From NCBI GenBank assembly GCA_000999095.1, contig LCFP01000004.1, forward strand, positions 80,930-144,929: a DNA stretch of 64,000 nucleotides. The letters run 5' to 3'. The notes under the pieces are model-generated. The model saw only the letters and a list, made by a program, of their open reading frames with translations, was not told where the DNA came from and made no database searches. Origin of the DNA: Candidatus Gottesmanbacteria bacterium GW2011_GWA2_43_14 (GTDB lineage Bacteria > Patescibacteriota > Microgenomatia > 2-02-FULL-39-11). Below, piece by piece: positions 2,769-45,804 of the stretch (position 1 is its first letter; every line of letters begins with the position of its first letter). The translations under genes were made by a program, and so were the position numbers.

Positions 2769-2837
2769 ATATCAATTTTTTGCCGGCCTGAATACGGATT
2801 TGACAGCTGTGGTAAGATATATAGAGATTTATAAATG

Positions 2838-3090
2838 CATTGATGGCATATGGTTGGGATGCCGGAGCAGCCCCGATAAAATCGGGGACGGAGGCGAAAC
2901 CGTAAAAAGACAGCAACGAGTGTCGTAAATAAAACGGAGCTCGTCAGAAATAAGGCTTTCCCGCCTTTTAATGACAGTCCCGATTTGATCGGGATTTTTT
3001 TAAGGAGGGGACGGCAAAACAAGGTGGCACCGCGAGTTATTCGCCCTTGATTCCCCGTGAATTATTCCGGGGAAAGGAGGGCGTTTTTTT
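2838..3090 (+). promoter_or_regulatory. T-box riboswitch leader, probably Trp-specific, upstream of trpE
   Basis: Conserved T-box sequence AACAAGGUGGCACCGCGAG at 3017..3036. The UGGC bulge would pair with the NCCA end of a tRNA whose discriminator base is G, as in tRNA-Trp. There is a candidate specifier hairpin with UGG (ggcauaUGGuugggaugcc, about 2846..2864). The leader lies directly upstream of the trp operon. A TTGACA -35-like hexamer lies at 2800..2805. Confidence 0.6.
3042..3090 (+). terminator. Intrinsic terminator forming the expression platform of the T-box leader
   Basis: Hairpin CGCCCUUgauuCCCCG...CGGGGaaAGGAGGGCG followed by a U7 run ending 1 nt before the trpE ATG. The 3' arm contains the trpE SD sequence AGGAGG. 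Confidence 0.5.
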
Positions 3091-4455
3091 ATGAGAAACA
3101 TATTTAAGACACTGAAAATCGGGAAATACCGGGAAGAGAAACTGGATTTAAATATCTCTGCCTTCGAGGTATTTAAGAGGCTTTATCCGCATTATAAAAA
3201 CCTCTTTTTATTGGAATCTTTAGGCGAAGAAGGCCGTTATAACCGTTTTTCTTATGTAGGAACTGCCCCAGATACGGTTTTAACTGCTATAGGTAAGGAA
3301 TTGATTATAGACGGAAAGTTACAGGAAAAAGTTAATCCTTTTGATTACCTGCGCCACTTGCCCAATATCAAATCAAGATCAAGCGGATTTATAGGCGGTT
3401 TAGTCGGTTATTTTACCTACGAAGCCGCCGGCTATTTTGAACCGGGCTTTAAGGGTTTTGAAAATAGCGGTTTTCCCGAATTTAGTTTAGGTCTTTATCT
3501 AGACGGCTTTATTTTTGACAAAAAAGGCCGTAAATGCCGCTATTTCCATTATGGCCGTTCAAGATTAAACCATTTCCTCAAACTGATTAATATGACAACC
3601 GGTAGATTGGCTGATTTTTCTTTTCAACCGTTAAGAAAACCTGATAAACAAAAACACATGGAAATGGTCAGTCATGCGCTTGAGGAGATAAAGAAAGGTA
3701 ATATTTTTCAGGTAGTTTTAGCTGACAAAAACAGTTACCGAATAAGCGGAGATTCCAGAAGGATTTATGCGGCTCTCCGCCAGGAAAACCCGTCACCTTA
3801 TATGATTTATCTTAAATTTGATAACCGGGAAATAATTTCTGCCAGTCCGGAGCTTTTAATTAGAGTTAAAGGCAAACAAATTGAACACTATGGAACCTTG
3901 GCCGGAACAATCAGAAGAGGCCGCGATCCGGATGAAGATCTTCGTTTGGAAGAAAAACTTAAAAATGACGCAAAAGAACAGGCCGAGCATCTGATGCTGG
4001 TTGATCTGGCCAGAAATGATGTCGGACGGATAGCCCAATTCGGTTCAGTGACGGCAGAAAAGATGGGAAGCGTCAAGAAATTTACCCATGTCCAGCATTT
4101 ATTCACAGAAATTCGGGGAAAACTCTTAAACGGTAAAAATTATTTCGATGCTTTAGCAGTCTGTTTCCCTGCCGGAACATTGACCGGCGCTCCGAAAATA
4201 GAGGCCATGAAGATAATAAAAGAGCTGGAGGGAGAATGCAGGGGACCGTATGGCGGTGTCGCCGGTTATTTTTCATTTAACGGTGAATCGATGCTGGCTA
4301 TACTGATCCGCTCTCTGTATATCAGGGGTCAACTGGCTGTAACCGAAACCGGGAGCGGTATTGTATTGGATTCAATCGCCGATCGTGAATTTAAAGAAAT
4401 TGTGAATAAACAGAAGGGCATGGAAAAAACTCTCCGGAAAGCGAGTGTGATATGA
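3091..4455 (+). CDS. trpE: anthranilate synthase component I
   Basis: Chorismate-binding enzyme signature (LMLVDLARNDVGRIAQFGSV, GAPKIEAM). Length 454 aa. First gene after the T-box leader. Confidence 0.9.
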   Translation: MRNIFKTLKIGKYREEKLDLNISAFEVFKRLYPHYKNLFLLESLGEEGRYNRFSYVGTAPDTVLTAIGKELIIDGKLQEKVNPFDYLRHLPNIKSRSSGFIGGLVGYFTYEAAGYFEPGFKGFENSGFPEFSLGLYLDGFIFDKKGRKCRYFHYGRSRLNHFLKLINMTTGRLADFSFQPLRKPDKQKHMEMVSHALEEIKKGNIFQVVLADKNSYRISGDSRRIYAALRQENPSPYMIYLKFDNREIISASPELLIRVKGKQIEHYGTLAGTIRRGRDPDEDLRLEEKLKNDAKEQAEHLMLVDLARNDVGRIAQFGSVTAEKMGSVKKFTHVQHLFTEIRGKLLNGKNYFDALAVCFPAGTLTGAPKIEAMKIIKELEGECRGPYGGVAGYFSFNGESMLAILIRSLYIRGQLAVTETGSGIVLDSIADREFKEIVNKQKGMEKTLRKASVI

Positions 4456-5033
4456 AAACATTAATTATTGATAATTATGATTCTTTTACCTATAACCTTT
4501 ATCAGCTTATCGGAGAATTAGGCGGGAACCCGCAGGTTATTCGGAATGACCGGATTTCACTTGCTGAAATTAAGGCATGCAAATATTCGCATATAGTCAT
4601 ATCTCCGGGACCCGGTAGCCCGGAAGATCCTAATTATTTCGGAATTTGTTCTCAAGTCATTATAAAAGCAGGCAAAAAAATGCCGGTTTTAGGAGTCTGT
4701 CTCGGGCATCAGGGGATTATTCACTGTTTCGGCGGAAAAATAGTCAGGGCCGAACAGATATTGCACGGAAAAAAGAGCCTCATAAAGCATAACCGGCAGG
4801 GCATATTTAAAAATATCAGAAGTCCTCTGTTGGGGATGCGTTATCACTCTTTGGTCGGGGAGAGAATTTCCTTGCCGGCGGAACTTGAGATCACGGCCGA
4901 AACCGATGACGACACCATTATGGGAGTCAAACATAAAAAATTTCCGATCTTCGGCATCCAGTTTCATCCGGAATCAATAGGTACTGAAGACGGATTGCTT
5001 ATTCTGAAAAATTTTCTGGGATCAGGATTATGA
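4452..5033 (+). CDS. trpG: anthranilate synthase component II (glutamine amidotransferase)
   Basis: Class I GATase catalytic Cys motif (GVCLGHQ) and the His/Glu dyad region (FHPES). ATGA overlap with trpE. Confidence 0.9.
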   Translation: MKTLIIDNYDSFTYNLYQLIGELGGNPQVIRNDRISLAEIKACKYSHIVISPGPGSPEDPNYFGICSQVIIKAGKKMPVLGVCLGHQGIIHCFGGKIVRAEQILHGKKSLIKHNRQGIFKNIRSPLLGMRYHSLVGERISLPAELEITAETDDDTIMGVKHKKFPIFGIQFHPESIGTEDGLLILKNFLGSGL

Positions 5034-6052
5034 ATCTGAATGATTATTTAAAAAAAATTACCGCTGGTGTTAATTTAAGCCGGAATGAAAGCGAAGAATT
5101 GGCAGGTTTGCTTTTGAATCATTCTCCGGAAGATTCAGTCAAAGCCGGGGCAGTTTTGACGGCTTTGAAAATGAAAGGGGAAACAGTCGAGGAGATTTTG
5201 GGATTCGTGCATATATTACGGAAAGAAATGATCAAAGTTCCTGTGGAAGGACTGATTGTTGATACCTGCGGTACAGGAGGCGACGGGCAACAGACTTTCA
5301 ATATTTCCACCGCCGCCGCTCTGGTTGCGGCCGCCTGCGGAGTTATGGTGGCCAAACACGGCAACAGAAAGGTTTCAGGATCAGTCGGCAGTGCCGATGT
5401 TTTGGAAGGATTGGCAGTAAAAATAAATTTAAGCCCCGAGGCAGCCAGCAAGTGTTTGGAAAAGATAAAATTTGCCTTTCTCTTTGCACCCAACTTCCAT
5501 CCGGCGCTTAAAACAATAGGAGCCATCCGCCAACAGTTGAAAATAAGCACGATTTTTAATCTTTTGGGGCCTTTGCTTAATCCCGCAGGAGTCAAAAGAC
5601 AGCTGATCGGCGTACCGAGTTTGGAAACAGCCGAAAAATTAAGTCAAGTTGTCAAAAAGCTGGACTATGAGCATGTTTTAGTGGTTTGCGCCGAAGACGG
5701 TTTGGATGAAATAAGTCTCTATGCCAGGACCCATATTTTTGAAATAAAAAACGGCCGCATCCGGCGGTTTATTTTAGATCCGAAAAGTTTGGGAATTAAA
5801 AGCAAGAATAAAGAATCAATCAAGGGGATTAACCGGAAACACAATGCCGGCATGATTTTGGATATTCTCAAAGGAAATCCTGGTGATCCGCGGGAGATAG
5901 TAATTCTGAACGCGGCTGCTGTTTTGACAGTGGTGGCGGCGGCTAAGAATTTTAAAGAAGGGATCATGTTGGCCAGACAGGCAGTTGATTCAGGCAAAGC
6001 CTTGGAAATTTATAAAAAATTTAAAGCTTTAACTTATGAACTTTCTGATTAA
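5030..6052 (+). CDS. trpD: anthranilate phosphoribosyltransferase
   Basis: DTCGTGGDG glycine-rich PRPP-binding motif and KHGNR. 4-bp overlap with trpG. Confidence 0.9.
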   Translation: MNLNDYLKKITAGVNLSRNESEELAGLLLNHSPEDSVKAGAVLTALKMKGETVEEILGFVHILRKEMIKVPVEGLIVDTCGTGGDGQQTFNISTAAALVAAACGVMVAKHGNRKVSGSVGSADVLEGLAVKINLSPEAASKCLEKIKFAFLFAPNFHPALKTIGAIRQQLKISTIFNLLGPLLNPAGVKRQLIGVPSLETAEKLSQVVKKLDYEHVLVVCAEDGLDEISLYARTHIFEIKNGRIRRFILDPKSLGIKSKNKESIKGINRKHNAGMILDILKGNPGDPREIVILNAAAVLTVVAAAKNFKEGIMLARQAVDSGKALEIYKKFKALTYELSD

Positions 6053-6707
6053 TCTAAAAAAACCATCAGGCTATTTCGCATTAATTGCCGAAATAAAACT
6101 CAAGTCGCCTTCCGAAGGATTTTTGGGAAACGAAAGCCAGGTGGTTGAAATTACCGGTCAATATCAGGAAGCAGGGGCTGATGCTTTGTCGGTTGTAACT
6201 GAAAAAAAACTATTTGCCGGAAATATTAAGCTGATTAAAACCGTCAAAAAAGCCTGCCAATTGCCTGTGCTTTGCAAGGATTTTGTGACAGAGGGACGTC
6301 AACTGAAGGCTATTGCTGAAGCCGGAGCGGATGCGGTTCTGCTTTTGTCCAGAATTCTCAATGACCTTCAGTTGGAAATATTAAAGCAGACGGCTCAAAA
6401 ACTTAATCTTTTGCCTATTGTCGAAGCCGATAATTTTAACGATTTGAATCGGATAAAAAACCGCAACTTTCCGGTAGTGGCCGTAAACGCCCGCAACTTG
6501 GATGACTTAACTGTTGACAGAGACAGAGCCTGCCGGATGCTGAGATTGATCCCGGAGGCAACTTTCAAATTGGCTTTTTCCGGCGTCAGAAACAGACAGG
6601 ATGTCAGGGATTACTTAAAAAGCGGAGCCAGAGGAGTCCTGGTGGGAACGGCTTTGATGAAATCAGCCGACAGAATTAATCTTATCCGGGAATTGAAAAA
6701 GTTGTGA
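6036..6707 (+). CDS. trpC: indole-3-glycerol phosphate synthase
   Basis: 223-aa TIM-barrel-sized ORF at the expected position in the trp operon. The start codon is uncertain; the ORF overlaps the trpD 3' end. Confidence 0.8.
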   Translation: MNFLINLKKPSGYFALIAEIKLKSPSEGFLGNESQVVEITGQYQEAGADALSVVTEKKLFAGNIKLIKTVKKACQLPVLCKDFVTEGRQLKAIAEAGADAVLLLSRILNDLQLEILKQTAQKLNLLPIVEADNFNDLNRIKNRNFPVVAVNARNLDDLTVDRDRACRMLRLIPEATFKLAFSGVRNRQDVRDYLKSGARGVLVGTALMKSADRINLIRELKKL

Positions 6708-7294
6708 AAACTAAAATTAAAATCTGCGGGATAAAAACATTGGAGGAAGCCCTTTTCTGCGGCCAGGCCGCCGCTGATTATCTGGGATTTAATTTCGTGC
6801 CAGCTTCATCCAGGCATATCGATATGGATACTGCCAAATCAATAATTGCCGGTTTGCCGTCAGGGAGGCTGGAGACAGTAGGAGTTTTTCGTGATGAGAG
6901 GCCTGAAAAAGTGTTACAGATAGCTGAAGTGTTACATCTTGACTTTGTCCAGTTACATGGAAATGAAAATGAGGATTACGTCAGATTACTGCCGAATTTA
7001 AGGATTATCAAAGTGATCAACGGAGATTCTCTTCCTGAAAAATTTCCGGCGGAATTTGTGATGATTGACCGGGAAATCCAGGGGCAAGGAATGACGGTAG
7101 ATTTCCAAAAACTGTCCAGTCGGCAAATAGGAAAGCCTCTCTTTCTGGCCGGAGGCTTAAAGCCGGAAAACGTCAGGCAGGCAGTGTCCATTGTCAGACC
7201 ATATGCGGTTGATGTCGCTTCCGGAGTCGAAACGAACGGAAAAAAAGATCCGCAGAAAATCAGAAAATTTATAACTCAGGTAAACTCTCTATGA
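6704..7294 (+). CDS. trpF: phosphoribosylanthranilate isomerase
   Basis: 196-aa PRAI-like ORF (KICGI..., QLHG) between trpC and trpB. 4-bp overlaps on both sides. Confidence 0.8.
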   Translation: MKTKIKICGIKTLEEALFCGQAAADYLGFNFVPASSRHIDMDTAKSIIAGLPSGRLETVGVFRDERPEKVLQIAEVLHLDFVQLHGNENEDYVRLLPNLRIIKVINGDSLPEKFPAEFVMIDREIQGQGMTVDFQKLSSRQIGKPLFLAGGLKPENVRQAVSIVRPYAVDVASGVETNGKKDPQKIRKFITQVNSL

Positions 7295-8445
7295 GCAAAA
7301 TAAACTTAACTCCAAAATCAGGCTATTTTGGCGAATTCGGCGGTAATTTTACCAGTGAGTTGTTGTATCCGGCTCTATTTGAACTAAGGAAGGTGTTTTC
7401 CAAATTAAAAAAGGACCGGCATTTTCTGAAAACATACCGGGGATATCTTGGCAGTTATGCCGGCAGGCCGACCCCTTTGTATTTTGCATCCAATCTGTCG
7501 GATTTTATCGGCTGCCGGGTTTATCTGAAGCGGGAAGATTTGGTCAACGGAGGCTCACATAAGCTGAATAACACTTTAGGCCAGGTACTGCTTACGAAAA
7601 CTTTGGGAAAAAAAGAAATTATTACTGAAACAGCGGCAGGCATGAACGGTGTGGCGACTGCCATGGCAGCAGCGGCCTTGGGGCTGACCTGCAAAGTTTT
7701 TATGGGGGTAAGAGACATGGAAAGGCAACGGCTGAATGCCCAAAAAGTTAAATTGCTTGGAGGAGAGATAATTCCGGTTAAAAGGGGAGAAGGAGTCTTG
7801 AAAGATGCGGTATCGGAGGCAATGGTCTATTGGATCAGAAATATACATACGTGTCATTATCTGATCGGTTCAACCGTGGGACCTGACCCGTTCCCGGAAA
7901 TGGCAGCTTTTTTTCAGAAAATAATCGGTTTTGAAACCCGGATGCAAATATTTCAGCAGGAAAAGAGACTGCCGGGAAAAATTATAGCCTGCGGTTCCGG
8001 AGGCAGCAATGCTATCGGTATTTTTCAGGCATTTGTAAATGATTCCTGTGAATTGATTTTCGTCGAAGGGGCGGAATCAGCGGCTTTATCATCGGGATCG
8101 GCCGGCATTTTCCAGGGGACAAAAACGTATATTTTGCAGGATGAGTACGGTATGGACAGGAAAACGACTTCCCGGGCAGCCGGCCTTAACTATCCGGCCA
8201 GGGGTCCGCAGATAAGTTATCTCTATAAATTGGGCAGAATTAAAGCGGAAACAGTAAATAACAGAGAAGCAGTGGCCGCTTTTCGGGAAACAGTGAGACT
8301 TGAGGGTTTGTTGCCTGCTTTGGAGACCTGCCATGCATTAGCGTATTTACTTAGAAACAAAGGGAAGTTTTCTCAAAAAGAACTAATTGTCGTTAATTTC
8401 TCCGGACGCGGAGATAAAGATATGGAAACAGTATTGAAAATATGA
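7291..8445 (+). CDS. trpB: tryptophan synthase beta chain
   Basis: PLP-lysine motif region YLKREDLVNGGSHKLNNTLGQVLL, which matches the TrpB consensus (GGAHKxNxxLGQ). Confidence 0.9.
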   Translation: MSKINLTPKSGYFGEFGGNFTSELLYPALFELRKVFSKLKKDRHFLKTYRGYLGSYAGRPTPLYFASNLSDFIGCRVYLKREDLVNGGSHKLNNTLGQVLLTKTLGKKEIITETAAGMNGVATAMAAAALGLTCKVFMGVRDMERQRLNAQKVKLLGGEIIPVKRGEGVLKDAVSEAMVYWIRNIHTCHYLIGSTVGPDPFPEMAAFFQKIIGFETRMQIFQQEKRLPGKIIACGSGGSNAIGIFQAFVNDSCELIFVEGAESAALSSGSAGIFQGTKTYILQDEYGMDRKTTSRAAGLNYPARGPQISYLYKLGRIKAETVNNREAVAAFRETVRLEGLLPALETCHALAYLLRNKGKFSQKELIVVNFSGRGDKDMETVLKI

Positions 8446-9173
8446 AAACTTTGATGACCCATCTTTATTACGGCGATATAAGTCCGGATTTTTCACAGAA
8501 ACTGGCATTAACTTTAGCTTCAGCTGGAGCTGATTTTTTGGAAATCGGGATTCCTTATTCAGATCCGGTATGCGACGGGGTTATTTTTCAGGCAGCCTGC
8601 CGGCAGGCGCTTAAACAGGGAATTACTCCTGATGATGTCATAAACGGCCTAAAAAAAATCAGAGAAAATACGGATACTCCAATTTACTTAACCAGTTATT
8701 TCGGTCCCATATTTAAAATGGGCATCGAAATTTTTTTACGGAAAGCAAAGTCAAGCGGGGTAAAGGGGTTGATTGTTCCAGATTTACCTTTGGAGGAACA
8801 AAAAATTAAATTGCCTCTTATTCAGTTTGCTGCTGTAAATTCAAGTACGGAGAGATTGCATCAGATTATTGAAGCCGCCCAGGATTTTATTTATGTCATG
8901 TCCTTGCCTGGAATTACCGGTGACGAAAATCCCGGATATGAAAATTTAAAAAAACTGCTGAAGTTAATTAAAAGCAAGACTGACAGGAAAATATTAGTCG
9001 GATTCGGTATCAGAACAGCAAAAGAGGCTGCTGAAATTTGCGGCATGGGAGCTGACGGGGTGATTATCGGCAGCAGGATCGCTGAAATTTACAGAAGTGA
9101 GCCCAAAAATGAAGATCAGAGCTTGGATAAAATCAGGAAATTAGTTATAAATGTTAAAAAAGCCATAGGATAG
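8442..9173 (+). CDS. trpA: tryptophan synthase alpha chain
   Basis: 243-aa TrpA-like ORF (LEIGIPYSDPVCDG...) that is the last trp gene. 4-bp overlap with trpB. Confidence 0.85.
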   Translation: MKTLMTHLYYGDISPDFSQKLALTLASAGADFLEIGIPYSDPVCDGVIFQAACRQALKQGITPDDVINGLKKIRENTDTPIYLTSYFGPIFKMGIEIFLRKAKSSGVKGLIVPDLPLEEQKIKLPLIQFAAVNSSTERLHQIIEAAQDFIYVMSLPGITGDENPGYENLKKLLKLIKSKTDRKILVGFGIRTAKEAAEICGMGADGVIIGSRIAEIYRSEPKNEDQSLDKIRKLVINVKKAIG

Positions 9174-9186
9174 GCAGGGATTTTTT

Positions 9187-9882
9187 ATGAGAGGAATAGG
9201 CACGATTCTAAATATCATCACTGTTTTGATTGGCGGATCCATAGGACTTATTATCGGAAACCGGTTGCCGGAAAATATTCACCGCGCAGTGATCGGAATA
9301 ACCGGTTTTATTTCTTTGGTCATCGGTATCCAGATGGCATTGGAGTCTAAAAATATTTTAATAGTCTTAATCAGTTTGATGGTCGGTGTGGTTGCCGGCG
9401 AAATGGCTGATATTGACGGAAGGCTTAAAAAGTTCAGTGAAGCGATTGAAAAAAAATTCAGCAAGGGAGATAAGGGGAAATTCAGCAAAGCTTTTCTCAC
9501 TTCCAGTTTGGTATTTTGTGTCGGGCCTTTAACAATCTTAGGTTCGATAAAAGACGGTTTGAGCGGGGATTATAGCCTCCTTGCTTTTAAATCCGTACTC
9601 GACGGATTTACCTCAATCGCCTTTGCCGCCTCTTTGGGAGTAGGTGTTTTATTTACAGCTTTTACTATTTTAGCAGTGCAGGGAAGCTTGACGCTGTTTG
9701 CCTCGACAATAAGCGGCTTGCTGACCGAAGCTGTCATTGCGGAACTTTCAGGTGTGGGCGGAGTTATGGTTATGTCAATTGGTCTGAATATTCTGGAAAT
9801 AAAGAAATTCAAAACAGCCAATATGCTGCCGGCTCTGGTTATTGCGCCTATAATTGTGACGCTCGTGGCTACAGTTTCTTAG
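9187..9882 (+). CDS. DUF554-family (YqgA-like) membrane protein
   Basis: Polytopic membrane protein with a DUF554-like N-terminus (GTILNIITVLIGGSIGL). It is co-directional and nearly contiguous with trpA. Confidence 0.55.
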   Translation: MRGIGTILNIITVLIGGSIGLIIGNRLPENIHRAVIGITGFISLVIGIQMALESKNILIVLISLMVGVVAGEMADIDGRLKKFSEAIEKKFSKGDKGKFSKAFLTSSLVFCVGPLTILGSIKDGLSGDYSLLAFKSVLDGFTSIAFAASLGVGVLFTAFTILAVQGSLTLFASTISGLLTEAVIAELSGVGGVMVMSIGLNILEIKKFKTANMLPALVIAPIIVTLVATVS

Positions 9883-9909: not shown

Positions 9910-11424
9910 ATGGATGAAACAGTCAAAAAATACATTGAAGAATTAAAACAGCTGGGTATAGATTTCAAGGTTTTGGAACATCCCCAGCTTATTTCCGTGG
10001 AAAAAGTCCAGGAATACTTAGGGTTTGGCATGAGTGATGCCGGAGCCACTCTTCTGATGAAAGCCGATGACAATTTTGTGGCTATCATAAAGCGGGGTGA
10101 CACCAAATTGGACAGCGAAAAAGTCAAAAAAAATTTGGGAGTTAAAAATCTGAGAATGGCCAATGAAACGGAATTTGCCGAAATAACCGGAGTCCCAAGC
10201 GGAGCTGCCACAGTTTATCTCAAAAATATTCCTACTTATCTCGATGAAAAAGTATTGGAAAAGGAATACATTAATGCCGGCAGCGGTTCACTCCTGGTCA
10301 CTCTGCGCTTTAAATCAGAGGATTTTAAAAAAATCCCGGGAATAAAAATTGTTGATTTGACGAAAATAGAAACCGGGAAAATTTCCGGTAAAAAGACAAT
10401 CATCGGTAAAAAAAGAATTCTTTCGGGAATTACTCCTTCGGGAGACGGAACTCTTCATATCGGCAACTATTTAGGGGCTGTCAAACAGTTTATTGATTTT
10501 GCCAAAACCCACGACTGTTTTCTGATGGTGGCGGATTTGCATGCGTTGACAACAGTTCAGGACAAGGCAACATTGCAGAAGAACACGGAAAATCTGATTC
10601 TGAACGAACTGGCTCTATTGGGGGATTTGAGCAATATCACCTTTTTCCGGCAATCGGATGTGCCGATGCATGCAGAGTTGACTTGGATCTTTAACAACGT
10701 CACCCCACTGGGCCTCCTAAAACGCGCCCACGCCTACAAAGATAAACTGCAAAAAGACGTTATGGAGGAAGAAATCAATCTCGGGTTATTCAATTACCCG
10801 ATATTGATGGCTTCGGATATTCTCCTTTACAAGCCGGACTTTGTGCCTGTTGGGCGCGACCAGAAACAGCATATCGAAATTGCCAGGGATATCGCTGAAA
10901 GATTCAATAAGACTTTTAAAAGTAAAATTTTTCCATTGCCTGAGGCGCATATACCGGAAGAAGTTGCCGTGGTTATGGGTACTGACGGCAATAGAAAAAT
11001 GAGTAAATCGCTGGGCAACATCATCGGTATTTTTGACGATAGCGCGGTGATAAAAAAGCAGGTAATGTCGACTTATACCGATCCCACCCGGATTCATGCG
11101 GATGACCCGGGGCACATCGAAGGGAATATGGTCTTTACTTACCTTGATTTTTTCGGCGATAAAGGGAAGGTGGCGGAATATAAGGAAAAGTACAAACAGG
11201 GGAAAGTCCCTGATGTTGAAGTTAAAAACTATCTGTTCGAGACTTTGTTGAAATATTTCGCTCCGGCCAGGCAGCTTTACCGGGAGTTGAAGAGTAATCC
11301 TGTCAAAGTCAAAAAAATACTGAAAGAGGGAGCGGAAAAAGCCAGGGAAGTTGCCGGATCAACCATGACCGAAGTCCGGAATGCAACCGGTCTAACAAAC
11401 TCATATTCCTTCTTTGAGTATTAA
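9910..11424 (+). CDS. trpS: tryptophanyl-tRNA synthetase with an N-terminal YbaK/ProX-type deacylase domain (fusion)
   Basis: The C-terminal roughly 340 aa form a class I aaRS with HIGH (TLHIGN) and KMSKS motifs and a TrpRS-like SGITPSG start. The N-terminal roughly 165 aa are a clear YbaK/ProX aminoacyl-tRNA trans-editing fold (DDNFVAIIKRGDTKLDSEKV...NAGSGSLLVTL). Confidence 0.85.
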   Translation: MDETVKKYIEELKQLGIDFKVLEHPQLISVEKVQEYLGFGMSDAGATLLMKADDNFVAIIKRGDTKLDSEKVKKNLGVKNLRMANETEFAEITGVPSGAATVYLKNIPTYLDEKVLEKEYINAGSGSLLVTLRFKSEDFKKIPGIKIVDLTKIETGKISGKKTIIGKKRILSGITPSGDGTLHIGNYLGAVKQFIDFAKTHDCFLMVADLHALTTVQDKATLQKNTENLILNELALLGDLSNITFFRQSDVPMHAELTWIFNNVTPLGLLKRAHAYKDKLQKDVMEEEINLGLFNYPILMASDILLYKPDFVPVGRDQKQHIEIARDIAERFNKTFKSKIFPLPEAHIPEEVAVVMGTDGNRKMSKSLGNIIGIFDDSAVIKKQVMSTYTDPTRIHADDPGHIEGNMVFTYLDFFGDKGKVAEYKEKYKQGKVPDVEVKNYLFETLLKYFAPARQLYRELKSNPVKVKKILKEGAEKAREVAGSTMTEVRNATGLTNSYSFFEY

Positions 11425-11496: not shown

Positions 11497-11832
11497 ATGA
11501 AAGCAGATATTCCTTTTGTGGACTTCCAAAAACTCGATCTCAGGGTGGGCAAAGTTCTTTCCGCCGAAGCGGTTGCAGGATCAACCAATTTATTGCGACT
11601 TAAAGTAAACCTGGGCAATGACCACGGGGTCAGGATTATTATTTCCGGCATTGCCAGATGGTATACTCCGGCTACACTAAAGGGAAAAAAGTTTGTTTTC
11701 GTCACTAATCTGGAACCCAAGAAATTAATGGGGGATGAAAGCCGGGGCATGATACTTTGTGCTGATTACGATCACAAGGCAGTTGTTGTTCCCGTTAACA
11801 AAAAGATCCCCGAAGGGACGATCATCAGATAA
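11497..11832 (+). CDS. tRNA-binding domain protein (Trbp111/CsaA-like, EMAP/OB fold)
   Basis: LDLRVGKVLSAEAV...L.V.LG......I.SG motif typical of Trbp111/MetRS-C tRNA-binding domains. A -35 TTGTTT / -10 TATAAT-like promoter lies at 11457..11485. Confidence 0.75.
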   Translation: MKADIPFVDFQKLDLRVGKVLSAEAVAGSTNLLRLKVNLGNDHGVRIIISGIARWYTPATLKGKKFVFVTNLEPKKLMGDESRGMILCADYDHKAVVVPVNKKIPEGTIIR

Positions 11833-21058: not shown

Positions 21059-22108
21059 ATGTATATCCCGAAATTTACCATCACCAATAAAATTCTGAGG
21101 AACATCGGCTTGATCGAAGCCGGACGGGAAGTTATTCTCAATGCGCCTCTGGTGCCGGCCTATGAAAAGAAATTCCGGGAGGAGGCAATTGTCAGGACTG
21201 TCCATCACGGTACCCATATCGAAGGCAATGAACTGAATTTAACCGAAGCGGAAAGGGTTCTTAAAGGCCAGCCGGTGGTTGCCCGTGACCGGGATATCCA
21301 GGAAGTCATCAATTACCGCAATGTCTTGAACTATCTTGATTATGTAGGCCAGGGAGAGATATCAAAAGGCAGAATTACCGAAGAGGTGGTTAAAAAAATC
21401 CATACCCTGACGGTGGAAAAATTGATGCAGCCGGAAGCAGGGGGCAGTTTCCGCAAGACCCAGGTAGTCGTCAAAAATTCCAAAACCGGAGAAATTACCT
21501 TCCGTCCTCCACCGGCCATAGAAGTCCCTTACCAAATATCTGATTTTTTGGAATGGCTGAATAAAACCTCCAAGGATGATATGCATCCGGTCCTCAAAGC
21601 CGGCATAACACATTATGAACTGGTGCGGATCCATCCCTTTATCGACGGAAACGGCCGTATGGCCAGGGCTGCTGCTACTCTGGTTCTGTTTTTCGACGAT
21701 TATGACATCAGAAAATTTTTCTCATTGGAAGAATATTACGACCGGGATGCAGCTCATTATTATGATTCATTAAGAAGCGCAGCTCAGGGTGAATTGACCA
21801 CCTGGCTGGAATATTTTACCGAAGGCCTGGCCATTGAGCTTTCCCGCATCAAAGAAAAAGTGCAGAAATTATCGACTGATTTGCAGTTAAAGCAAAAATT
21901 GGGAGGCCAGCAGGTTTTTCTGACGGAAAGGCAAATCTCGATTATGGAATACATCCAAAGAGTGGGATTTCTCAATAACCAGGGATTTGAAGATCTTTTC
22001 CCTAAAATTTCCGAAGACACCATTTTACGGGACCTTAAGGATTTGATGGGGAAGGGGATTATCAAGAAAGAAGGCAAGACCAAAGCTTCAAGATACATGC
22101 TCCGGTAA
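21059..22108 (+). CDS. Fic/Doc-family protein (AMPylation-type) with a C-terminal winged HTH
   Basis: Canonical Fic motif HPFIDGNGRMARA. N-terminal inhibitory-helix-like element (HIEGN). The C-terminal 90 aa resemble a wHTH. Confidence 0.85.
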   Translation: MYIPKFTITNKILRNIGLIEAGREVILNAPLVPAYEKKFREEAIVRTVHHGTHIEGNELNLTEAERVLKGQPVVARDRDIQEVINYRNVLNYLDYVGQGEISKGRITEEVVKKIHTLTVEKLMQPEAGGSFRKTQVVVKNSKTGEITFRPPPAIEVPYQISDFLEWLNKTSKDDMHPVLKAGITHYELVRIHPFIDGNGRMARAAATLVLFFDDYDIRKFFSLEEYYDRDAAHYYDSLRSAAQGELTTWLEYFTEGLAIELSRIKEKVQKLSTDLQLKQKLGGQQVFLTERQISIMEYIQRVGFLNNQGFEDLFPKISEDTILRDLKDLMGKGIIKKEGKTKASRYMLR

Positions 22109-22113
22109 TCACT

Positions 22114-23874
22114 ATGACTTTTAAAAGACTGGCAGAATATTTTCATAAACTGGAAAATACCACACTCCGCAACCAAATGACGGAGATTCTGGCGGAATTG
22201 TTTAAAGAAGCTCCTCAAAATGAGATCGGCAAGATTGTTTACCTTTTACAGGGCCGTGTGGCACCTCTATATGAAGCAGTCGAATTCGGACTGGCTGATA
22301 AGATGATTATCCGGGCGATTGCAGACGGGTTAAAAGTCGACAGTCAAAAAGTGACGCGGGTTTTTAAAGAGAGCGGTGATTTGGGTAAAACAGCCGAAAA
22401 ACTCAAAGCAAATGTTAAAACAAAACACAATTTAAACGTATTACAAGTTTTCGGGACTTTGCATAAAACAGCCTTGGCCGGTGGGGAAGGGTCGCAGGAT
22501 GTAAAGATCAAATTATTAGGAAGCCTGATCAGGGATCTTGATTCTTTGTCAGTCAGATATTTGGTACGGATTCCGGTAGCCAAACTGAGGCTGGGTTTTT
22601 CCGATATGACAATTCTGGATGCTCTGTCATGGATGAAGGCAGGTTCGAAAAAATTAAGGCCGCAATTTGAAAAAGCATATAATGTCCGCCCTGATTTGGG
22701 ATTAATTGCCGAGACCGTCAAGAGACACAAAGAAAATAATTTCAATATCGAGCCCCGTGTAGGTATACCGATTCTCATGGCCAGGGCGGAGAGAATGGGC
22801 AGCGGAGAGGAAATTATAGACAAAATAGGCCGCTGTGCCGTCGAACCGAAATACGACGGTTTTCGTTTGCAAGGGCATAAAATGGGAAACAAAGTGGAGC
22901 TTTTTTCCAGAAATTTGGAAAATGTTACCCATATGTATCCTGATATCGTCCAGGGTATAAAAAAACAGGTTAAAACCAAAGAAGCGATTATTGAAGGAGA
23001 AGCTGTTGCTTATAATCCGCAAACAGGCGAGTATTTGCCTTTCCAGGAGACGGTGCAGCGGAAAAGAAAATATAATATTGAAGCCAAAGCCAAGGAAATT
23101 CCTCTGAAGCTGTTTGCTTTTGAACTTCTGTACCAGACGGGTAAAAATTTAATCATGTCTGAGTATGTTGAACGCCGTAAACAACTGGAAAAAATAGTTG
23201 CCCGGGGTGAGGTGATTTTGATTGCCCAGGAAGAAGTGATTGATACCCCTAAAAGACTGGAAGCAATCTTTCTTGATACAGTCAGCCGGGGACTTGAAGG
23301 CGTCATGGCCAAAAAATTGGACGGCATTTACCGTGCCGGTTCCAGGGATTTCAACTGGATTAAATACAAAAGAAGCTATGCGGGAAAATTGGATGATACG
23401 GTGGATGCTGTTGTTATGGGTTATGATTTCGGCCAGGGAAAACGGACGGCTTTCGGTATCGGTGATTTTCTGATCGGAGTCTTCGACGAAAAACTGGAGA
23501 AGTATGTTTCCATTGCCAAAATCGGAACGGGCCTGACCGATGAGGAATGGAAAGAGATAAAAATCAGGAGCGAAAAGCTGAAGGCCCCGGAAAAACCCAA
23601 AAATTATGAAGTCGACAAAATCATGGGTTGTGATGTCTGGATAACCCCTAAAATAGTCGTCGAAATCCGGGCGGATGAGATAACCCGTTCTCCCGTGCAT
23701 ACTGCAGGCAGAATCATGGGGCCTACTAAAACCGGATCTGCGATTGAAGTCAAAGAAGCAGGGCTGGCTTTACGTTTTCCGCGCCTTGAAAGGTTCCGCG
23801 ATGACAAAAACCCAACCGATGCCACCACACTCGGGGAACTTAAAAAAATGTTGCATCGGCAAATGAAAAAGTAA
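22114..23874 (+). CDS. ATP-dependent DNA ligase (archaeal/eukaryotic Lig1-type: DBD + adenylation + OB)
   Basis: Adenylation motif I KxDG (EPKYDGFR), motifs III-V (FAFELLY, EGVMAKK, WIKYK), and an N-terminal DNA-binding domain. Confidence 0.85.
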   Translation: MTFKRLAEYFHKLENTTLRNQMTEILAELFKEAPQNEIGKIVYLLQGRVAPLYEAVEFGLADKMIIRAIADGLKVDSQKVTRVFKESGDLGKTAEKLKANVKTKHNLNVLQVFGTLHKTALAGGEGSQDVKIKLLGSLIRDLDSLSVRYLVRIPVAKLRLGFSDMTILDALSWMKAGSKKLRPQFEKAYNVRPDLGLIAETVKRHKENNFNIEPRVGIPILMARAERMGSGEEIIDKIGRCAVEPKYDGFRLQGHKMGNKVELFSRNLENVTHMYPDIVQGIKKQVKTKEAIIEGEAVAYNPQTGEYLPFQETVQRKRKYNIEAKAKEIPLKLFAFELLYQTGKNLIMSEYVERRKQLEKIVARGEVILIAQEEVIDTPKRLEAIFLDTVSRGLEGVMAKKLDGIYRAGSRDFNWIKYKRSYAGKLDDTVDAVVMGYDFGQGKRTAFGIGDFLIGVFDEKLEKYVSIAKIGTGLTDEEWKEIKIRSEKLKAPEKPKNYEVDKIMGCDVWITPKIVVEIRADEITRSPVHTAGRIMGPTKTGSAIEVKEAGLALRFPRLERFRDDKNPTDATTLGELKKMLHRQMKK

Positions 23875-42644: not shown

Positions 42645-45566
42645 CTATTCAAAAGCCATGGAGGAGCTGATTTTGGCAAAACCGCCGAAAATTATGCTGA
42701 AAAGAATCAGCATCGCAAGCGGAGCAATCAAAGACAAGTAATTCCGTTTGCCCGGCCGGAAATATTTTAAAGTCAGGGAATTGGTAACGACGGAGATGGA
42801 GGATAAAGCCATGGCCAAACCTGCCAATTCGGGTTTAAGCACAAGCCCCATGAAAGCGAAAGCCCGGGCAGCGACGGGGATGCCAACGATGTTATAAAAG
42901 AGGGCGAAAAACATGTTTTGCTTAATTTTACTCATCGTATCGTGGGAAAGATTGATGGCAGTAACTACATCCCGCAGGTCGTTTTTGACGATGACGATAC
43001 CGCCTGTTTCCATCGCGACATCAGTTCCCGAACCCATGGCAATCCCTAAATCAGCCTGAGCTAATGCCGGCGCATCATTGATGCCGTCGCCGACCATGGC
43101 CACAATTTGTTTTTTATCCTGAAGTTTTTTGACTTCATTGGCTTTGTCTTCAGGTAAAACTTCCGCCAGAATATTGGTAATGCCGACCTGATCAGCAATA
43201 GCCTGGGCAGTCCGTTCATTGTCGCCGGTGATCATATAAACTTCGATATTTCTTTTTTTAAGCTGATCGATAGCTTCCCGGCTGGTTTCTTTGACGGTAT
43301 CGGCAACCGCAATCGCTCCCAGGATCTGATTTTTATCTGCCAAAAGCATGGCGGTTTTACCCATGTTTTCCAATCTAATCAGTTTGTCGTGAAGTTGACC
43401 GAGCTCAACTTTGGCGACATCTGTCATCAGTTTCCGGTTGCCCATATAATAAGTTTCGCCTTTGATGGTGCCGGTGACTCCGTGACCGGGTATGGCCTTA
43501 AAATTCTCGACATTCTTCATGAGCATATCTTTTTCCCGGGCAAAGCCTACAATGGCTTCCGCTAAAGGATGTTCAGAAGATTTTTCCAATGAAGCGGCAA
43601 TTTCCAGGATTTGAGCCTCTCCGGTTTCAGTGTAGCTTTCGATATCGGTCACAATCGGTTTGCCGTTGGTTAAAGTACCGGTTTTATCGAAAATGATGGT
43701 TGTTATCCGGCAAATCTTTTCCAAGGGTTCGCCGCCTTTTATTAAAATGCCGTGTTCCGCGCCCTTACCAGTACCGACCATCAAAGCGGTCGGAGTCGCC
43801 AAGCCCAAGGCGCAGGGACAGGCAATGACGATAACGGCCGTGAATGCCATCAGGGCAAATGATAAGGAAGCCCCAAAGATCAGGTACCAGACGAGAAAGG
43901 TGCCGATGGCGATAATGATGACGGCCGGGACAAACCAGGCTGAAATGCGGTCGGCGAAGGCCTGAATGGGTGCCTTGGAACCCTGGGCTTCCTCAATTAA
44001 ACGGATGATTTGGGCTAGCGTGGTTTCGCTGCCGACCCGGGTTGCCTCAAATTCAAAGCTGCCCATTTTATTGATGGTTGCCCCGACCACATTATCACCG
44101 CTGTTTTTTTCAACAGGTATGCTTTCGCCGGTAATCATCGATTCATCGACGGAAGATGAGCCTCTGATAATTTTGCCGTCAACCGGGATTTTTTCGCCCG
44201 GCCGGACCAGCAAAATGTCGCCTTTGACCACCTGATCCAAAGGAATATCAACCGTATTGCCATTTCTTATAACTCTGGCGGTTTTTGGCTGAAGGCCCAT
44301 CAATTTTTTTATGGCATCTGATGTTTTACCCTTGGCTCTAAGTTCCAGCCATTTTCCCAAAAGAACAAAAGTAATCAAAAAGGCGGATGTTTCAAAATAC
44401 AATTCCGGTATTTTTTCTATCACCGGCCCGAGGAGAGTACCTGTTAGGGAGAAATAACTCAAATAATTGAAAGCGCTGTAAAAATAGGCAGCCGAGGTGC
44501 CGATGGCTATCAGACTGTCCATATTAAAGGTTTTCATCCTGAGAGCGGACCACATGCCTTTATAGAAACCGTAACCCAAAACAAACTGCACCGGGGTCGA
44601 CAGGATGAAAGAGAGGACGCCGACATAAGGATTAAAGAACAGTTTGCCGATTGCACCCGGGAAAAAGTCGAACAGCATGAAATAAAGCAATGGCAAGCTC
44701 AGGATCAGGCTGGAAATGAACTTCGAAAAAAGCATTCTAGTTTCTTCCTGACGTTTTCGCGTTTCAAATTCGGTATCTTTTTGATCAATCTGACTGGCTT
44801 TATAACCGCTGTTTTCCACCGCTTTGATCAGATTTTCGACAGTCGCCTGGTTAGAGTCAAAGTCAACCAGCGCCTTTTCGGCGGCAAAATTGACGTTGGC
44901 GGAAGAGACGCCATCAACCTTTTTAAGGGAACGTTCAATCAGTTGGGCACAGGAAGAGCAGTGCATACCGGAGAGAGATAACGAAACTCTTTTGCGTATA
45001 TCAGGCGTTTCAGCCGGAGTACTTATTTCAGGAATTTGTGATTTTTTTGCCGGTATTTGATCAGGTTTATTCGACAAGACGTTATCTTGGGAGGGGAGAG
45101 GGTTGAATAGCGGGGCATTATCCAAAGATCCGGAAAGTTTTGACATAAAATTCTTCACTTCTCCATTACCGAAAGATTGTTGGTATTCGGATTTTTGGAA
45201 TTTGCTGATTTTACCATCAAAAAATGGTTCACCATGATCATTTAGAAAAACACGCCCTTGCGCTTCAACTCTTGATTCAATTTTAACCGGAACACTGCTT
45301 CTTGTCACTTTTGCCCCAGCGGTGCTTTTATTAGCTTCCGTTCCAACACTTTCTTCCTGGAGTGCTTCATAGCCTGCCCGTTTGACCGCTTCGATCACTT
45401 CGGTCAGGCTGTTTTTACTTTGGTCAAGAGTGAGAACGGCCAGCTGTTTTTGGAAACTGACATTTATATCGGAAACACCCGGTAAAGCCGCCAGTTCCTC
45501 TTTCGTAACCACTTCACAGGAGCGGCAATGCATGCCTTTGATATTTAATTTCAGCTTTTTTTTCAT
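42645..45566 (-). CDS. copA: copper-translocating P1B-type ATPase with two N-terminal HMA domains
   Basis: Two MxCxxC HMA domains ([18 protein letters not shown]), TM6 CPC ([12 protein letters not shown]), DKTGTLT, the YN and MxxSS TM signatures, and GDGINDAP. Confidence 0.9.
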
Positions 45567-45579
45567 TAAGAAATTTTCT

Positions 45580-45792
45580 TCAGTTTATAACCTGATAATC
45601 CGTACCTTCCAGTGATTTCTTAATTTCCGTAAGATTAATATCACGTCTGGCGGTAACTTGCGCCTCACCGGTCAGGGAAACGTTAAAATCCAAAACACCT
45701 TCGATTGAATTGACTCTGCGTTTGATAAGTTTCAGACAAGCGTCACAGGTGATGCCGGTAACGTAGAATTTTAGCGTATTTATATCGGACAT
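45580..45792 (-). CDS. copZ: HMA-domain copper chaperone
   Basis: GITCDAC MxCxxC-type motif. 70 aa. Immediately upstream of copA. Confidence 0.8.
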
Positions 45793-45804
45793 GAAAAGAC
45801 TCCT

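Follow-up and report, generated by a model that had tools for sequence, protein, structure and literature searches.

The 64-kb stretch of Gottesmanbacteria DNA analysed here (hereafter the window) contains a forward-strand tryptophan operon that ends in a composite tryptophanyl-tRNA synthetase (TrpRS) gene. The genes trpE-G-D-C-F-B-A and a gene for a DUF554 membrane protein (3091..9882, +) lie directly upstream of this trpS, with gaps of 13 and 27 nt. The trpS gene is an uninterrupted open reading frame from ATG to TAA (9910..11424, +) that encodes 504 aa in three parts: an N-terminal domain of the INS/YbaK superfamily (hereafter the N-domain; aa 1–154, 9910..10371, +), a flexible, Lys-rich linker (aa 155–168, 10372..10413, +), and the TrpRS catalytic body (10414..11424, +). 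A sequence-only reading of this locus had proposed an in-frame N-terminal YbaK/ProX/INS-fold domain of about 165 aa on TrpRS, and both the architecture and the size hold. The single frame matches PF04073 and TIGR00233 and has no internal stop or frameshift, including between the domains, and the fold itself (aa 1–153 or 154) is followed by a basic linker of ~15 residues that extends to about aa 168 (about aa 154–168). In the full-length AF2 model (pTM 0.62), pLDDT drops below 50 at aa 154–163, and no fixed interface is predicted between the N-domain and the TrpRS body. Since Met is absent from the linker, TrpRS can be made only as the fusion.

Upstream of trpE lies a T-box-like leader (2831..3051, +). 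It aligns with RF00230 over the full model length at 57 bits (E 6e-12) against a gathering score of 93; at gathering thresholds Rfam returns no match in the window, and the T-box is seen at the E-value threshold only. The leader includes a 'GGUGGCACCGCGAG' box and a terminator hairpin that ends at the trpE start, and of Stem I only a short, UGG-containing hairpin remains. Such an element probably regulates the operon that ends in the trpS fusion, and the fusion is therefore probably induced when tRNA-Trp is uncharged. ProRS, YbaK and tRNA genes are all absent from the 64-kb window.

The C-terminal part of the fusion is, judged by profiles and motifs, a complete TrpRS with the hallmarks of a tryptophan--tRNA ligase. 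It scores 302.9 bits with the NCBIfam model TIGR00233 (trpS), over the cutoff of 176.75, and matches Pfam PF00579 at aa 169–450 (E 1.5e-65); HIGN lies at aa 183–186 (10456-10467) and KMSKS at aa 363–367 (10996-11010). To our knowledge TrpRS has no editing domain and no need for amino-acid proofreading, a point on which the sequence-only reading was right. That reading also took the next gene to encode a Trbp111-like tRNA-binding protein, which agrees with our searches: the product of this separate gene (11497..11832, +), Trbp111/MetRS-C-like, matches PF01588 with 81.3 bits (gathering 27, E 5.5e-23). It is nearest to the MetRS C-terminal type (TIGR00399, 108 bits, just under the cutoff of 116.65) and shares 46% identity with the C-terminal domain of P0043; in many relatives the tRNA_bind module is the C-terminal part of the same enzyme. 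In the window the two genes share a frame, with three in-frame stops and a promoter-like TTAACA-18-GATAAT site between them, which rules out read-through or a recent split.

The two-domain architecture recurs well beyond the window. An identical 504-aa protein is found on 6 contigs from two sequence sources (for two of the 6 placements the source is given, an ENA metagenome assembly and the Logan assembly of SRR29904083), and INS-like and TrpRS domains are joined in ~85 of the 120 best database clusters, with a conserved junction motif, ...K(R/K)ILSGITPSG. Named carriers of the fusion are Patescibacteria (Gottesmanbacteria, Roizmanbacteria), and in Patescibacteria metagenomes the fusion proteins bear the annotation 'tryptophan--tRNA ligase' only. 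Purifying selection acts on the N-domain, with a dN/dS of ~0.12 against L001 and dN about equal across the protein (0.158 in the N-domain, 0.147 in the TrpRS core). With an intact frame, identical proteins on 6 contigs from two sources, ~85 clusters sharing the junction, and selection on the N-terminal part, the possibility that mis-assembly, a frameshift or a sequencing error joined two genes is practically excluded. Whether YbaK-TrpRS fusions might already be a widespread, described family had also been raised: widespread they are in Patescibacteria metagenomes, and a paper describing them was not found.

Profile and structure comparisons place the N-domain in the INS/YbaK/ProX superfamily. 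Pfam PF04073 (tRNA_edit) matches aa 24–141 with 74.1 bits (E 1.3e-20; gathering 25.5), covering profile positions 1–122 of 123. Its AF2 model (pLDDT 89.5) has the YbaK-type alpha/beta fold, and Foldseek aligns it with 1wdv, 2cx5, 2z0k and 1dbu at a probability of 1.00, TM scores of 0.75–0.89 and rmsd of 1.8–2.5 Å; signalling proteins (SadB 9qzk, 3mem) are also among the fold matches. The closest sequence matches are APE2540 and the ProRS INS domain, the latter at E 4.5e-10 with a profile, and the match to PRK09194 (ProRS) is confined to its editing segment, positions 249–390. The YbaK equivalog TIGR00011 gives only 32 bits, under its cutoff of 153.25; the "very clear similarity" to YbaK claimed earlier was thus overstated, and assignment to the YbaK or ProX type fails because the conserved Lys (here Ala46) and the Pro of the GXXXP loop are absent. 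By these marks the N-domain is a member of the INS/YbaK/ProX superfamily, yet neither YbaK nor ProX proper. With both residues missing, deacylase activity cannot be assumed from homology.

The active site differs from that of characterised relatives in a patterned way. Lys and the GXXXP loop are present in every characterised INS-superfamily deacylase (PMC11286415). In pairwise and profile alignments, the strand GATLLMK (aa 45–51, 10042..10062, +) places Ala46 at the superfamily Lys position, and in six PDB alignments, including 5znj, 1wdv, 1dbu, 3op6 and 2j3l, Ala46 faces that Lys (YbaK K46, ProXp-ala K45, INS K279). Across 164 Lys-less domains the Lys column holds Ala (72), Ser (49) or Pro (33), and never Lys. 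The AF2 hairpin E44-52/E55-62 pairs the Ala46 strand with a strand that carries the basic pair K61-R62, part of a KRGD motif that also includes D64 (aa 61–64, 10090..10101, +). At position 61, 85% of Lys-less domains have R/K and 85% of Lys-containing relatives have L/V/I; R occupies position 62 in 88% of the former and 15% of the latter. Loss of the Lys thus co-varies with gain of a basic pair on the paired strand, and the N-domain is, on its alignments, a member of a distinct Lys-less clade (its "class A") that usually has a [KR]-R pair there.

We considered a universal rule that the Lys moved to position 61 and softened it. Position 61 is basic in 85% of Lys-less domains and in every TrpRS-fused N-terminal domain of the first alignment; it is non-basic (I/L/S), with R62 retained, in the free-standing P0128-P0130 and P0136, and Ala in the C-terminal domain of P0131. 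In the loop that corresponds to GXXXP, GAATV (aa 98–102, 10201..10215, +), G98 is kept and Pro is replaced by Val102; class B domains of relatives retain GYVSP there. Elsewhere the superfamily's conserved residues are kept (H24, G98, D112, G126, D138). The family Lys serves chiefly to bind and steer the C75-A76 phosphate, and the chemistry falls to the A76 2'-OH (PMC10164551); with roles divided in this way a relocated basic residue is plausible.

Lys-less domains keep consistent company. Wherever a fusion partner could be identified in our sample, it is TrpRS. The domain is N-terminal on two TrpRS lineages (that of the window; L002 and P0156) and C-terminal on TrpRS in P0131, and domains of different classes also occur on TrpRS as tandem pairs, A-B and C-B. 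Free-standing members span 147–159 aa. In two contexts they lie in apparent operons with TrpR-family regulators, one of which also includes an amino-acid racemase, and a racemase is in or near two free-standing loci. A split form, with the free-standing domain encoded next to trpS, is unsupported at all loci examined: no such copy was seen beside trpS in L003, L009, L010 or L094-L099, or at 16 TrpRS loci of a Microgenomates-type clade that lack the N-domain.

These partners bear on the view, raised by the sequence-only reading, that the N-domain proofreads tRNA-Pro in trans. In its broader form, the N-domain would deacylate tRNA-Pro or other tRNAs mischarged with Ala, Cys, Ser, Thr or Abu, with TrpRS as a mere platform. 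Substrates of this kind are used by every characterised family member, and in sequence the N-domain is best matched by the ProRS INS domain and ProX-type proteins. The Lys-less clade, however, is attached in our sample to TrpRS only, across two TrpRS lineages and three or more arrangements, with no fusion to ProRS or any other synthetase; its free-standing members adjoin TrpR-family regulators, and the signature residues of ProXp and YbaK are missing. We consider this role very unlikely.

The module is optional among close relatives. At the syntenic Gottesmanbacteria loci L007 and L011, trpA is followed directly by a TrpRS that lacks the N-domain. In one pair the TrpRS cores are 100% identical and presence of the N-domain is the only difference, with the limit that Logan contigs may be chimeric, which bears on the L012/L013 comparison and not on the window. 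No column of the TrpRS core tracks N-domain presence (maximum mutual information 0.23 bit), and co-adaptation of the core to the N-domain is accordingly rejected. A single-sequence scan of the genome collection gave 3 loci only, and a word-indexed search with the L003 protein matched only that protein itself. A dispensable module that no core residue tracks is more readily understood as an accessory enzyme than as a tRNA handle that TrpRS requires.

Such a handle is what the main alternative proposes: a catalytically dead editing-fold domain, reused for binding or handing over tRNA in concert with the Trbp111-type module at the opposite end. The N-domain would hold the acceptor end or the body of tRNA-Trp and so raise the affinity of a minimal TrpRS. 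Such reuse would account for the loss of the hallmark Lys and loop Pro, and it accords with a PF01588 module fused or adjacent in the same TrpRS lineage and with the reuse of the YbaK-like fold in signalling proteins (SadB 9qzk, 3mem). It also has a precedent in the AlaX homologue on P. falciparum TrpRS, which has lost its editing residues, is needed for function and probably binds tRNA (PMC4828885). Yet the lost Lys is the very residue that binds A76 of the tRNA, an odd loss for a tRNA-binding domain, and pocket-type conserved residues are retained. Close relatives work without the domain, as the identical-core pair illustrates, and no core residue co-varies with it; moreover, the tandem classes and the free-standing copies beside TrpR and racemase genes better fit enzymes with distinct substrates. 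We regard a tRNA-binding role as somewhat unlikely.

Combining these observations, we propose, at an even chance, that the N-domain is a tethered proofreading module for tRNA-Trp, with D-Trp as the leading candidate substrate and Trp analogues as the alternative. Editing would be post-transfer: once TrpRS has acylated the 3' end, the flexible tether would let the CCA end reach the INS-like pocket within the same dimer, where a non-cognate aminoacyl ester would be hydrolysed by substrate-assisted chemistry involving the A76 2'-OH and the backbone. R/K61 and R62 would replace the missing Lys in steering the phosphate. Induction at uncharged tRNA-Trp would coincide with the greatest likelihood of mischarging by competitors of L-Trp.

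Several lines of evidence favour tethered editing: the recurrent fusion, the confident fold, the retained conserved residues, the co-variation of Lys loss with the basic pair, a dN/dS of ~0.12, TrpRS-only partners in several arrangements, dispensability, free-standing members with TrpR-family regulators and a racemase, and the T-box-like leader with tight gene spacing. Other points weigh against it. The INS pocket normally takes small side chains, not indole; TrpRS is not known to need proofreading; and some members of the Lys-less clade have no basic residue at position 61. Lys has become Ala and the loop Pro Val, when characterised deacylases have both (PMC11286415), and a degenerate editing-domain homologue for tRNA binding is known on P. 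falciparum TrpRS (PMC4828885).

The old pocket might instead serve as a sensor, in which free Trp, a derivative or an aminoacyl-adenylate-like molecule modulates TrpRS. A conserved pocket that lacks the tRNA-steering Lys, Trp-linked contexts (the T-box-like leader, the TrpR neighbours) and the reuse of the fold in signalling proteins would all suit ligand sensing. The AF2 model argues otherwise, with a disordered linker and no fixed TrpRS interface at pTM 0.62, and free-standing copies have no enzyme to regulate. As the INS/YbaK fold also offers no precedent for binding a free amino acid, we give this explanation very little credence.

The partners of INS-like domains suggest a bolder extension of the proofreading model, in which those on TrpRS, TyrRS and AspRS would be chiral proofreaders (of D-Trp, D-Tyr and D-Asp) that do the job of DTD. 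We hold this generalisation to be unlikely. If it were correct, the window enzyme would combine TrpRS with its own D-Trp-tRNA-Trp deacylase and be induced by Trp starvation, and the free-standing copies with TrpR and racemase would safeguard translation during salvage or synthesis of D-Trp. In its favour, the synthetases found fused to INS-like domains (TyrRS, AspRS and TrpRS) make up the classical DTD substrate set, a racemase lies in or near two free-standing loci, and a tRNA_edit domain is fused to a D-Ala-D-Ala carboxypeptidase. The INS domains appended to TyrRS and AspRS contain the Lys and are more canonical. DTD, a possible functional analogue of the N-domain with an unrelated fold and mechanism, was seen neither in the window nor in 0.8 Mb of further loci, which are loci and not whole genomes.

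The INS/YbaK superfamily is described as a set of proline-system editing factors that all rely on a single Lys and a GXXXP loop and, INS excepted, consist of one domain. The Lys-less clade departs from this description on both counts: the Lys is gone, and TrpRS, specifically, has acquired its domains repeatedly as an exchangeable module. A 2020 network analysis reportedly defined ProXp-7/8/9. Literature searches on the YbaK-TrpRS fusion, on Patescibacteria or candidate-phyla editing domains and on ProXp-8/9 gave nothing relevant, with most subscription papers outside the search, and we found no description of the Lys-less, TrpRS-fused branch in the searchable literature. If the module is catalytic, it would represent a new, possibly chiral editing activity on tRNA-Trp and a new active-site design in this fold, and tRNA-Trp may have an unstudied quality-control step. 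If it is non-catalytic, it would be the second independent disabled editing domain on a TrpRS after that of Plasmodium, and a hint at what a minimal TrpRS lacks. In both cases the translation apparatus of candidate-phyla bacteria, itself poorly understood, would gain a feature that concerns fidelity or tRNA handling.

Four known systems resemble the fusion in part. The ProRS INS domain (E. faecalis 2j3l, S. aureus 5znj) shares the fold and the RGD that follows the hairpin, gives the best sequence matches, and works in cis on its own synthetase; it is an insertion that separates motifs 2 and 3 of a class II ProRS and clears Ala-tRNA-Pro with Lys279 and GXXXP kept, whereas the N-domain sits at the N-terminus of a class I TrpRS and has neither the Lys nor the loop Pro. 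The ProXp-ala of Plasmodium and trypanosomatids is likewise an INS-superfamily domain attached through a disordered linker, but to the N-terminus of ProRS; it has the canonical Lys and GXXXP, and its deacylation of Ala-tRNA-Pro has been measured. Free-standing YbaK, ProXp-x (T. thermophilus 2cx5) and APE2540 (1wdv) are the closest structures and similar in size (~150 aa); they share ~20–24% identity with the N-domain and differ in having the catalytic-site Lys. P. falciparum TrpRS also carries an N-terminal editing-domain homologue with altered catalytic residues (PMC4828885), although there the fold is AlaX rather than INS and the synthetase is of the eukaryotic type. That AlaX-like domain is reported to be essential to the function of the enzyme (PMC4828885), whereas the N-domain is optional among close relatives.

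The gene at 9910..11424 (plus strand) is one uninterrupted 504-codon frame that joins an editing-type domain to tryptophanyl-tRNA synthetase (TrpRS). Its Pfam matches are PF04073, the aminoacyl-tRNA editing domain, at residues 24-141 (74 bits, E 1.3e-20), and PF00579, the class I W/Y synthetase family, at residues 169-450; with the trpS equivalog of NCBIfam it reaches 302.9 bits, above the cutoff of 176.75. The synthetase motifs HIGN (residues 183-186) and KMSKS (residues 363-367) are both intact. These matches bear out the sequence-only reading of an in-frame editing domain on TrpRS, with no frameshift or stop between the two. Moreover, the interdomain segment, KIETGKISGKKTIIGKKR, lacks Met, so no form of TrpRS other than the fusion can be made. 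The next gene (11497..11832, plus strand; PF01588), for a tRNA-binding protein, shares the frame of the fusion but is separated from it by three stop codons and a promoter-like site.

The chance that assembly falsely joined two genes is negligible. The identical 504-aa protein occurs on six contigs, among them ones in an ENA metagenome assembly and the Logan assembly of another run. Both domains are present in ~85 of the 120 top-scoring clusters at 90% identity; the few named ones belong to Candidatus Gottesmanbacteria, Roizmanbacteria, Microgenomates or 'Patescibacteria group'. Compared with a homologue from Gottesmanbacteria RBG_16_37_8, the N-domain has dN 0.158 and dS 1.34 (dN/dS ~0.12), and this dN is on a par with the 0.147 of the TrpRS body, so selection has kept the domain.

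The N-domain has the INS/YbaK-superfamily fold. Its AlphaFold2 model (25 homologues) is confident (pLDDT 89.5), and superposition gives TM 0.75-0.89 to APE2540 (1wdv), to ProX of T. thermophilus (2cx5/2z0k) and to YbaK of H. influenzae (1dbu). The label YbaK/ProX-type stands for the fold but not for the signature: both signature features of the superfamily are missing, and the score with the YbaK equivalog model is 32, far short of its cutoff of 153. In six PDB alignments, obtained by searching with the single sequence and with profiles, Ala46 of 'DAGATLLMK' lies opposite the Lys of 'xKT(L/M)' (YbaK K46 and equivalents), and the counterpart of the GXXXP loop reads G98-A-A-T-V102. Every characterised superfamily member uses the Lys and the GXXXP loop (PMC11286415). 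The Lys chiefly binds and steers the C75-A76 phosphate, and hydrolysis depends on the A76 2'-OH (PMC10164551).

This domain belongs to a larger Lys-less clade. Appended domains in 120 homologues fall into three classes, ~25-30% identical to one another: class A, which includes the window's domain, class B ('GVSTLIF...RRDD...GYVSP') and class C ('AMATILY...KRAD...GLVPY'). We aligned these with 150 representatives from an exhaustive profile search. The 164 Lys-less domains have A/S/P at position 46, in no case K, together with R/K at position 61 (85%), R at position 62 (88%) and D at position 64 (92%). Of the 91 Lys-containing relatives, 85% have L/V/I at position 61 and just 15% have R at position 62; H24, G98, D112, G126 and D138 are conserved in both groups alike. 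Since the predicted model forms a hairpin of residues 44-52 and 55-62, residue 61 would pair with residue 46, which would fit a shift of the positive charge onto the adjacent strand. Exceptions at position 61 are the free-standing P0128-P0130 and P0136, with I/L/S.

Lys-less domains pair with TrpRS. Writing W for TrpRS, the architectures are A-W, A-B-W, B-W, C-W and C-B-W, each found both with and without tRNA_bind at the C-terminus; class A also occurs on another TrpRS lineage (L002, P0156), and a class-A-like domain sits C-terminally on a further TrpRS (P0131). The identifiable partner of long Lys-less representatives is TrpRS in every case, and a role for the domain on tRNA-Pro seems improbable. 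Lys-containing relatives are fused N- or C-terminally to archaeal-type TyrRS (P0179, P0253, P0270), C-terminally to non-discriminating AspRS (P0211, P0216, P0191), and in one case to a YqgF-like protein. We found no mention of canonical INS-like domains on AspRS or TyrRS in the searched literature. In another Lys-containing relative, the 486-aa P0202, the partner of the tRNA_edit domain is a D-Ala-D-Ala carboxypeptidase of the serine type (Peptidase_S11).

Already known are the fold, its role in editing, and its fusion to a synthetase in the case of ProRS. A 2024 review describes superfamily members as single-domain, INS excepted, and ProXp-7/8/9 as uncharacterised. An already described, widespread family would have been the other objection to the finding; the fusion is indeed widespread among the best clusters, but a TrpRS-specific, swappable, Lys-less INS-superfamily clade has no description in the searchable literature, which leaves out most subscription papers and so allows for prior mention.

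The editing-type module is optional among relatives. At L007, the syntenic locus on a 1.1-Mb Gottesmanbacteria contig, trpEGDCFBA is followed 4 nt past trpA by a 339-aa TrpRS, then tRNA_bind, ftsH, 5'-3' exonuclease, GT4, fpg and so on. P0061, one of the two nearest TrpRS cores at 86% identity, likewise lies right behind trpA and lacks an N-domain. On a neighbour-joining tree of TrpRS cores, classes and domain-less forms intermingle, and no core column tracks domain presence. Among 80 metagenome loci, the domain occurs in 6 of ~21 Microgenomates-type-clade TrpRS loci, while all 59 of the more distant TrpRS loci lack it. Two contigs, L012 (1684-2991) and L013 (1130-2437), are 100% identical over 1308 nt, starting exactly at the SGITPSG codons, the first conserved ones of TrpRS, and differ completely upstream. 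There L013 carries trpA and a class C domain in fusion, and L012 an unrelated gene and the short start MRKRIL. Either strains have swapped the 5' module, or a Logan contig is chimeric.

Patescibacteria usually have few amino-acid biosynthesis pathways. Here the fusion gene ends a tight run in which a complete trpE-G-D-C-F-B-A operon (3091-9173, plus strand) is followed, with gaps of 13 and 27 nt, by a DUF554 membrane protein gene (9187-9882, plus strand) and edit-trpS. Relatives L007, L011 and L013 have trpS directly after the trp operon; DUF554 is absent from that position in the syntenic L007 and L011, and may have come in along with the N-domain as a Trp- or indole-related transporter. Upstream of trpE lies a T-box-like leader (2769-3090, 322 nt, plus strand), matched by RF00230 at 2831-3051 over the full model length (57 bits, E 6e-12, below the Rfam gathering score of 93). 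It has a canonical GGUGGCACCGCGAG box, a reduced Stem I consisting of a very short hairpin containing UGG, and a terminator hairpin and T-run ending at the trpE ATG, with the Shine-Dalgarno within the hairpin's 3' arm. From these features, uncharged tRNA-Trp probably induces the operon. To our knowledge, T-box leaders are not commonly reported in candidate-phyla bacteria. Elsewhere, the window encodes an ATP-dependent DNA ligase with N, adenylation and C domains (22114-23874, plus strand) adjoining a Fic-domain protein (21059-22108, plus strand), and a metal-handling cluster (42645-47643 and 54867-57161, minus strand) with two heavy-metal P-type ATPases (HMA/HMBD) and an HMA-DsbD_2-cupredoxin membrane protein.

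Some class-A-like proteins that stand alone, with 41-53% identity to the domain in the window, have neighbours that hint at a Trp link. Free-standing Lys-less genes apparently form operons with TrpR-family regulators (L094, L095, and L097 with its parent 8.8-kb JGI contig). At L094 (5741-6456) and L095 (3790-4505) the domain gene overlaps the end of the regulator (PF01371, 56.5 bits) by 4 nt. In one of these cases, on a contig other than L094 and L095, the genes run from a TrpR-family regulator through an amino-acid racemase (TIGR00035, 145 bits, above cutoff) and a 421-aa protein without family match to the INS-like domain, and they overlap or stand a few nt apart. An Asp_Glu_race gene lies 2.7 kb from the more distant P0136; no TrpR-family or racemase neighbours were seen at L003, L009 and L010. 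Elsewhere, a free-standing class B domain (P0291; L096:3563-7469, on a 520-kb contig) has two M20 peptidases and a beta-lactamase-family protein at its flanks.

A chiral-proofreading role is conceivable, if rather doubtful, given that INS-like domains occur with three synthetases (TyrRS, AspRS, TrpRS) that match the classical substrate set of D-aminoacyl-tRNA deacylase, that racemase genes lie by free-standing members, and that a D-Ala-D-Ala carboxypeptidase is the partner of one relative. We found no D-aminoacyl-tRNA deacylase in the window or in 0.8 Mb of retrieved loci, a stretch too small to speak for whole genomes. A ligand-sensing role looks a slim prospect.

The full-length predicted model has two well-folded bodies and a disordered linker (pLDDT < 50 at residues 154-163, pTM 0.62), suggesting that the N-domain is tethered, not docked, to TrpRS. 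We favour, at about even confidence, a putative accessory proofreading module: the tethered domain would act on the 3' end of tRNA-Trp charged by the attached TrpRS, and would matter most when L-Trp is scarce. Proofreading best fits the conserved pocket-type residues, purifying selection, dispensability in close relatives, tandem arrays of different classes, TrpRS-exclusive association, and Trp-linked regulation of fused and free forms. The main rival, possible if on the unlikely side, is a disabled editing fold turned to tRNA binding, to which the missing hallmark residues and the companion Trbp111 module point. Such a disabled editing fold on TrpRS has a precedent in the AlaX-TrpRS of Plasmodium (PMC4828885).
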